DNA from: Eledone cirrhosa
Lineage: Eukaryota
Length of the DNA stretch: 64,000 nucleotides
Direction of reading: 5' to 3'
NCBI GenBank assembly: GCA_964016885.1
Contig: OZ024741.1
Span: 215,574,001-215,638,000 of the forward strand
Part shown: in pieces, positions 6,992 to 7,187 of the stretch
Numbering within the stretch: position 1 is the stretch's first letter
How the letters are laid out: the number at the start of each line of letters is the position of its first letter
Position numbers and translations under genes: made by a program
The notes under the pieces: model-generated
What the model was told of the DNA's origin: nothing
The model's input: the letters and a program-made list of their open reading frames with translations, nothing else
Database searches by the model: none

Positions 6992-7187
6992 TAGGAAAAT
7001 GTTTGACCCCGGCGGCAGAGCGCAAGCCATTTCGACGGCTATTTATGGACTCCAGGAGTCCAGAAATATCCGTCGAAACGGCTTGAGCTCTGCCATCGGG
7101 GTCAAACATTTTCCTATTACCCACTCTACTATTGAGTACTCTGGTGCGTTATGGTCCATCTGGTTCCTTACCACACCTCCTTCGTTA
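6992..7187 (+). repeat. Interspersed hairpin element (about 60-bp arms plus a conserved tail)
   Basis: taggaaaatgtttgacccc...ggggtcaaacattttccta palindrome. Relatives at 57661-57866, 59460-59660 and 57042-57187. Confidence 0.8.

Follow-up and report, generated by a model that had tools for sequence, protein, structure and literature searches.

Penelope-like elements (PLEs) of the Hydra clade that carry a C-terminal endonuclease (EN+) are described as having a single ORF that joins a reverse transcriptase (RT) to a C-terminal GIY-YIG-type domain, with DKT, CxCX5C linker, CxxC and CxH motifs, and as inserting in (TA)n targets in the form of tandems, with a hammerhead in the pseudo-LTR (pLTR), an inverted 5'-truncated copy and a one-sided tail (Craig et al. 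2021, PMC8557442). Inverted-pLTR insertions of Penelope in Adineta vaga are reported to consist of head-to-head pLTR pieces with an optional tail and an initiator-like motif in the pLTR, and for these low-copy families the explanation given was self-priming, for which the template may have been antisense (Arkhipova et al. 2013, PMC3846280). For PAc, a Poseidon element of Anolis, both target strands are cut and extended in vitro, and two internal RT start sites bracket the tail, with a hammerhead just upstream (Frangieh et al. 2024, PMC11167929). The hammerheads of PLEs, including Schistosoma Cercyon with its U3-A8 core variant, are described as having type I topology, a short stem I and a palindromic loop III (Cervera and De la Pena 2014, PMC4209133). 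The Penelope transcript is reported to begin inside the upstream pLTR, in a source that treats the regeneration of pseudo-LTRs and tandems as an open question (PMC2377424), and the role of PLE hammerheads is likewise presented as open (PMC8557442, PMC11167929).

We analysed 64,000 nt of Eledone cirrhosa contig OZ024741.1 (assembly GCA_964016885.1, positions 215,574,001 to 215,638,000 of the forward strand; hereafter the window), from a microsatellite-rich genome of 3.0 Gb. The window contains four copies of a short element (Table 1), each of which is the last 130-150 nt of the pLTR of a Hydra-type PLE, with part of this sequence standing inverted in front of it, and lies in (TA)n. The fold-backs that the initial annotation had placed at 6992, 57661 and 59460 are at these positions: comparison of their folding with shuffles gave -89.7 kcal/mol (z = -15.5) for 6995-7114, -106.2 kcal/mol (z = -21.6) for 57664-57784 and -67.1 kcal/mol (z = -10.2) for 59541-59655 on the minus strand, and 0 of 200 shuffles equalled any of the three. 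Copies 1-3 align with one another (70-83% identity, E = 3e-60 to 2e-10 in BLAST within the window), and this alignment bears out the conserved tail that had been claimed for them. The derivation proposed for the arms also stands: the 3' arm is the 3' half of a hammerhead (3' strand of stem II, GAAAC, stem III, GUC and 3' strand of stem I) and the 5' arm, which copies this half in reverse, takes in these stubs the place of the first core box and of the 5' strands of stems I and II. In copy 1 the hammerhead triplet (7095-7097) is mutated to ATC; the arm and tail of copy 2 are 90% identical to those of an intact parent, L241.

Table 1. Positions of the four copies in the window.
Feature	Position	Strand	Remarks
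Copy 1, inverted arm, 60 nt	6992..7051	-	Reverse copy of pLTR, inner end point to +1 base
Copy 1, junction, 5 nt	7052..7056	.	First base C, last base G; neither in parents at that position
Copy 1, direct arm (3' half of type I hammerhead)	7057..7116	+	GAAAC 7075-7079
Copy 1, one-sided tail between two end points, then (TA)n	7117..7186	+	
Copy 2, inverted arm, 60 nt	57661..57720	-	
Copy 2, direct arm (hammerhead 3' half)	57725..57784	+	GAAAC 57743-57747; GTC 57763-57765
Copy 2, tail, then (TA)n	57785..57866	+	
Copy 3, inverted arm	59598..59655	+	Older subfamily; element on minus strand
Copy 3, direct arm (hammerhead 3' half)	59536..59597	-	
Copy 3, tail	59457..59535	-	
Copy 4, inverted arm, short, decayed, 37 nt	57154..57190	+	Element on minus strand
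Copy 4, direct arm	57105..57153	-	Start near +10 in the parent from the oldest subfamily
Copy 4, tail with internal deletion, then (TA)n	57041..57104	-	

Several other classes were considered for the stubs and rejected. A MITE or other TIR DNA transposon does not account for an 80-nt tail outside the repeat or for junctions that differ from copy to copy. Non-LTR retrozymes are described as tandem units with a complete hammerhead in each (bioRxiv 10.64898/2026.07.22.740005), whereas the stubs are single head-to-head insertions without a complete hammerhead. A microRNA or hairpin-RNA gene was dismissed because the pairing is not under selection and the best Rfam match of copy 2, mir-312, reached 39.9 bits, below the cut-off of 55 for that microRNA family. 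Among the 150 of 250 Rfam matches listed, no hammerhead fell on any of the four copies.

The parent was reached by walking upstream from relatives of copy 4 into a GIY-YIG-type C terminus and an RT on the same strand; a candidate ORF on the strand opposite the hammerhead was dropped. The intact member L241 consists of an inverted pLTR, a partial tandem, a pLTR and a 718-aa ORF, the ATG of which lies 90 nt past the end of the tail. Its protein carries RWR (at 37), DKT (117), YRDD, CxCX5C (572), VIY..YIG (591-608), CxxC (669) and CxH (698), and a telomerase-like RT is contained in a single ORF. A structural model with pLDDT 93.6 gave TERT (3du5) and yeast telomerase as top Foldseek matches, with other RTs close behind, whereas the single-sequence model (pLDDT 32) was unusable. 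Pfam and PDB sequence searches with this ORF returned no match. The C-terminal domain matched a Pfam-confirmed GIY-YIG domain of the window in a profile comparison (E = 2e-4, probability 46%), and 1 of 12 homologues scanned passed PF01541, which together give moderate support to a predicted C-terminal GIY-YIG endonuclease domain. Among 7996 candidates scored we found 2058 homologues of the L241 protein, nearly all without a name among the 120 listed. In an older subfamily, L147/L148 links RT, endonuclease, UTR, hammerhead and tail (71% over 2281 nt). The subfamily of copy 3 has a long parent in 1 of 30 loci (L253, with a U3-A8 core), and in every subfamily examined there are long parents with an intact hammerhead. 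Arrays have a spacing of about 3.54 kb, and pLTR tandems with an inverted 5'-truncated copy are found at L241 and L242; at L242 the arms are long and their end points differ. The tail is present on one arm only.

Judged by the motifs described for the clade, the parent is a Hydra-type EN+ PLE, and it shares with that clade each of the features listed at the outset (PMC8557442). It differs from the published description in its unit of about 3.54 kb (generally <3 kb in the clade), in having RWR in place of RWK, and in that most insertions are stubs ending near one base (PMC8557442); the tail is about 80 nt, against 30-40 nt reported. Two putative RT start sites that bracket the tail, the predicted cutting and extension of both target strands and the hammerhead just upstream are shared with PAc, where the sites lie inside the ORF and not, as would be the case here, in the leader before the ATG (PMC11167929).

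The window holds further repeats. Two copies of a second Hydra-like PLE, with about 52-54% protein identity to L241, lie at 3601-6809 and 59727-61730, the former with 427-nt inverted ends, and a GIY-YIG fragment (PF01541) between 427-nt inverted arms at 41957-44371 is another PLE insertion. At 44835-48560 on the minus strand, a 1241-aa open frame with an RT-like YVDD, a GIY-YIG-like end and no Pfam match contains a long Asn/Thr/His-rich stretch that is reminiscent of the Asn-rich inserts in rotifer Penelope ORFs. A perfect palindrome with 323-nt arms (8710-9359) carries hammerhead-like motifs on both strands (Rfam HH9, 37.7 bits, below the cut-off of 52) and is probably a stub of another PLE family with a fixed stop of its own; a short copy near 9500 starts at about its centre. 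Fold-backs of other repeat families, together with a long GC-skewed minisatellite of 9-15 nt units, occur at 50600-51350, 38476-40858 and 12700-16300.

In the parent, the minimum-energy fold of L241:5293-5405 forms stems I-III around UUGAGAA, GAAA and GUC, and the pLTR thus holds a complete predicted type I hammerhead with a U3-A8 core. This fold is no more stable than those of shuffles (z = 0.58), and an Rfam search of the parent returned no hammerhead match. Of 11 parents whose cores were compared, 8 have U3-A8, 1 has C3-G8 and 2 are mismatched, and the 10 long copies among 92 tail-anchored copies are hammerhead-bearing, mostly with a U3-A8 core. A search with CUGANGA plus the stem II pattern of the young subfamily gave 1 match genome-wide; the conclusion from that search that young stubs have no parent was wrong, as young parents have the U3-A8 core. 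The core changed from C3-G8 in the oldest subfamily (L148) to U3-A8 in younger ones (L241, L253), a compensatory switch which suggests that the parent ribozyme is under selection. The type I topology, short stem I and palindromic loop III of known PLE hammerheads recur here, and the U3-A8 pair, which is covariant in young parents, is shared with Cercyon; unlike the hammerheads in that description, the present ones have a longer stem III and a loop II of 35-40 nt that apparently holds the RNA start, and the stubs are without the first half of the core (PMC4209133).

The fourth copy had been read as a relative with hammerhead topology, and as a possible ancestor of the hairpins. It is indeed a family member: its tail and arm match the long parent L148 (76% identity, E = 3e-17), and 40 candidates at 75-85% identity were scored in a genome search (389 first-look candidates), although direct BLAST within the window gave no alignment between it and copies 1-3. 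The letters from which the hammerhead was read are present, but the topology is not supported. The stretch that had been taken for stem I and the hammerhead core is the short inverted arm of Table 1. In all 29 relatives, the right arm, once reverse-complemented, is identical to these first 37 nt at 26-33 positions; the stretch scores 45 against the copy's own right arm and 14 against the 5' half of the true hammerhead, with which it does not align. Because of this match, CUGAACGC in copy 4 is a decayed inverted arm and not a core variant. The relatives of copy 4 are also hairpins or are cut near the hairpin centre, and 3 of the 29, plus one pattern match, continue upstream into a complete type I hammerhead.

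Copies of the family are very numerous. A 31-nt tail motif has 35,766 exact matches in the genome (0 for the reversed control), and searches with copies 2 and 3 returned 3235 and 2567 first-look candidates, of which 40 each were scored. The first 92 matches of the tail motif on contig C1 served as a tail-anchored sample. In 90 of the 92 copies the tail runs into (TA)n, and 63 of the 66 inverted arms have (TA)n in front of them; these 66 inverted arms are a lower bound, because the script missed some decayed ones. The outer ends of the element fall at two fixed points, 81 nt apart and both flush with (TA)n: loose TA ends pile up at L241:5409 and L241:5489, as tallied on contigs of four runs whose kind is unrecorded and which may include the source sample.

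The within-copy complementarity of arms that differ between copies, on which the initial annotation had based a claim of covariation, is real. In the 42 of the 92 copies in which both arms measure 45-70 nt, the arms agree at 229 of 239 subfamily-diagnostic positions, compared to 47% (maximum 64%) when arms are shuffled between copies. As a sign of RNA structure, however, the covariation fails, since only 1 of 39 private changes (at L171) is mirrored in the opposite arm. Likewise, arms are more alike within a copy at subfamily sites, but inside subfamilies divergence is about equal within and between copies (0.004 and 0.004, 0.054 and 0.051, 0.045 and 0.051, 0.035 and 0.035, and 0.085 and 0.108, respectively, in five subfamilies). 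These divergences and the 38 unmirrored private alleles leave hardly any credence for matching after insertion, whether by gene conversion, cruciform repair or selection on RNA pairing, for which the mirrored allele of L171 and a few mirrored rare variants among query-selected copies could be cited. At L212 (G000:C1:13300454-13301884) the arms disagree at three neighbouring bases, where their letters fit two different subfamilies, and it looks as if two RNA molecules had served there; the overall discordance (10/239) is not above the mutation background.

Comparison of the junctions shows 63 distinct geometries among the 66 copies with a detected inverted arm, even among near-identical young copies. 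Taken together with the unmirrored private changes, these differences indicate that the arms were matched by copying and not by selection; derivation of both arms from one template lineage yields the covariation. The junctions also tell against the proposed non-autonomous hairpin element, which would be mobile as one unit and a possible source of small RNAs, and come close to the random variation of hairpin centres that the initial annotation had itself named as contrary to it. Very high copy number, the presence of a full hairpin in nearly all of the 40 best matches to copy 2, the limit that a hairpin template would also set on arm length and the near-perfect dsRNA predicted for its transcript all speak for such an element. 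Each subfamily nevertheless follows its own long, hammerhead-intact parent, the junction extensions match parent sequence and the pairing is not under selection, and we therefore regard a mobile hairpin as very unlikely.

Arm lengths are capped near 60-67 nt. The right (direct) arm is ≤68 nt in 81 of the 92 tail-anchored copies, 69-127 nt in 1 and ≥128 nt in 10, and the inverted arm is ≤68 nt in 66 of 66. It starts flush with (TA)n at one or other of the fixed end points and exceeds the direct arm by 10 or more nt in 19 of 66 copies, being shorter by 10 or more nt in 7. Snap-back of a single cDNA, which would fold at the loop II stem and copy itself, has been proposed for palindromes at inverted PLE junctions (PMC3846280), and many copies here are in fact near-symmetric and centred on a natural stem-loop. 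Fold-back of one cDNA cannot, however, give the 19 inverted arms with 10 or more nt missing from the direct arm, and neither the two alternative starting points nor the long arms of L242 with their different end points fit this route, which we consider highly improbable.

Within hammerhead loop II, the limit on arm length falls at the A in a YYAGTY motif (+1, L241:5349), which is present in young, middle and old parents; at this position we take the motif to resemble the insect initiator consensus, and no downstream promoter element is evident nearby. Of the 28 right arms scored in the oldest subfamily, 19 begin at -2..+7, 0 at -20..-3 and 6 further in, and 3 are long. Genome-wide, 5002 hairpins have both young-type arms reaching the +1 base. 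Many arms extend 1-5 nt past +1 and many end 2-15 nt short of it, so that the arm end is a cluster. Among 30 relatives of copy 3 the loop base is A in 12, absent in 8, T in 7, C in 1 and unscored in 2; a flip-flop of the loop by inversion is a needless explanation, since which arm reaches +1 explains the base.

The same base recurs as a restart point. We identified 530 genomic places with a tail-to-ORF-leader junction (≤2 mismatches), of which 70 were read. Leaving out joints due to reference ends, a backward direct joint occurs at 17 of the 70, and 13 of these 17 restart at -2..+4 (p about 1e-25 against a uniform null), the upstream piece ending scattered from +182 to +959; the other four restart at -11, +132, -57 and -381. 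The leader-spanning piece also starts at -2..+5 in 11 of the 70 loci. The base before +1 is T or C in 45 of 45 long-copy contexts, some from overlapping loci, whereas the untemplated junction base at that position is G in 16 cases and A in 3 (p = 0.002). This tally combines 10 vs. 3 by hand (82 arm ends, 50 loci listed), 2 vs. 0 at restart loci and 4 vs. 0 from 30 of 32 hammerhead-end loci; the other two loci contribute one each beyond this tally. Copying of an RNA cap would give an added G; the excess is modest and could reflect a bias of the RT in untemplated addition. At L305:779-3016, seven tandem units of 299 nt (99-100% identical) each consist of 0..+262 plus -57..-19 of the parent, possibly from a circular or repeatedly jumped template. 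By eye the tail seemed to pair with the ORF leader, but folding did not reproduce this pairing.

These observations very probably reflect a PLE origin with arms rebuilt at each insertion, and, given that origin, we regard it as quite probable from the sequence pattern that an RNA end underlies the stop. The sharp stop would then likely mark where the RT runs off the RNA, at a capped 5' end. An alternative with the same PLE origin and two-ended priming invokes a long read-through template, on which a structural block, or trimming of folded-back cDNA, at stem II/loop II would produce the stop. RNA structure could be the cause, as in the youngest parent the stop lies at the apex of a natural stem-loop continuing stem II: the +1 region of L241 is the 3' strand of this stem-loop, in two older parents a small stem-loop read from the sequences closes just before the motif, and 10 of the 92 copies cross the stop point seamlessly. 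Local structure varies among subfamilies, however, while the stop follows the YYAGTY motif, and both the restarts joined to scattered downstream ends (twice within L276, L321 and L342) and the added bases ending in G fit run-off from an RNA end, so that we consider a block improbable.

Run-off is probably how the stubs arise: at each insertion, each of the two cut target ends would prime a short cDNA, and the pair would run off the likely capped 5' end of the RNA and be joined. Transcription would begin at the initiator-like YYAGTY inside hammerhead loop II, and with such a start the 5' copy on the mRNA would be half a ribozyme only. The endonuclease would cut both strands of (TA)n, and the RT would begin at two internal sites, about 60 and about 141 nt from the RNA 5' end. 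On arriving there, a cDNA may jump to an RNA's 3' end and go on, or may be joined head-to-head to its partner, giving a hairpin; the composite loci may be cases in which the RT ran off the 5' end and jumped to a broken 3' end. The stubs, being without the sequence downstream of the RT start, are probably dead, and secondary amplification of some of them is possible. Natural run-off at the 5' end, jumping and the joining of two cDNAs do not figure in the available part of the PAc description (PMC11167929). Compared to Adineta vaga, there are tens of thousands of copies here, and the staggered arms together with the joints suggest that two cDNAs were made from the end of a sense RNA. An open-literature search yielded no paper that joins PLEs with strong-stop DNA or template jumps, and no run-off or jump evidence was found there.

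In LTR retrotransposons, minus-strand strong-stop DNA is a short cDNA made near the RNA 5' end, which must jump to the 3' end. Synthesis at the present elements would be target-primed, at both target ends and without tRNA primer or integrase, and the analogy is one of working only. A further, rather unlikely extension is that the PLE replicates like an LTR element: with a promoter inside hammerhead loop II, the mRNA would start in a half-ribozyme unable to cut, the complete hammerhead in the 3' pLTR would cut at +41 to leave a 41-nt terminal repeat, target-primed strong-stop cDNAs jumping by way of this repeat would rebuild the pLTR and tandems, and failed jumps would give the tens of thousands of hairpins. 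One locus lends it direct support, L348, at the centre of which (G000:C2:233147528) a complete hammerhead ends exactly at GUC and is followed by four added bases ending in G and a restart at +1. Among 32 matches to hammerhead-cut 3' ends as jump acceptors, 30 were read; their ends scatter from +34 to +54, with about 4 clean ends at +41 and 3-4 at +46/47, and GTC microhomology confounds both groups. At two loci with a full hammerhead upstream, one ends at +41 and the other at about +52.

The layout of such insertions was known; what is added here is the stop near one base, the restarts there and the enrichment of G. Arm covariation in hairpins of this kind is not evidence for structured RNA, and the stubs record PLE reverse transcription in nature on a very large scale. 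The start-site reading makes a precise prediction: capped RNAs should start at L241:5349, within the ribozyme. The intact young ORF of L241 is usable for in vitro work. If confirmed, this reading would bear on the regeneration of pLTRs and tandems and on the role of PLE hammerheads; LTR-like replication, if true, would give these hammerheads a job and pLTR regeneration a route.
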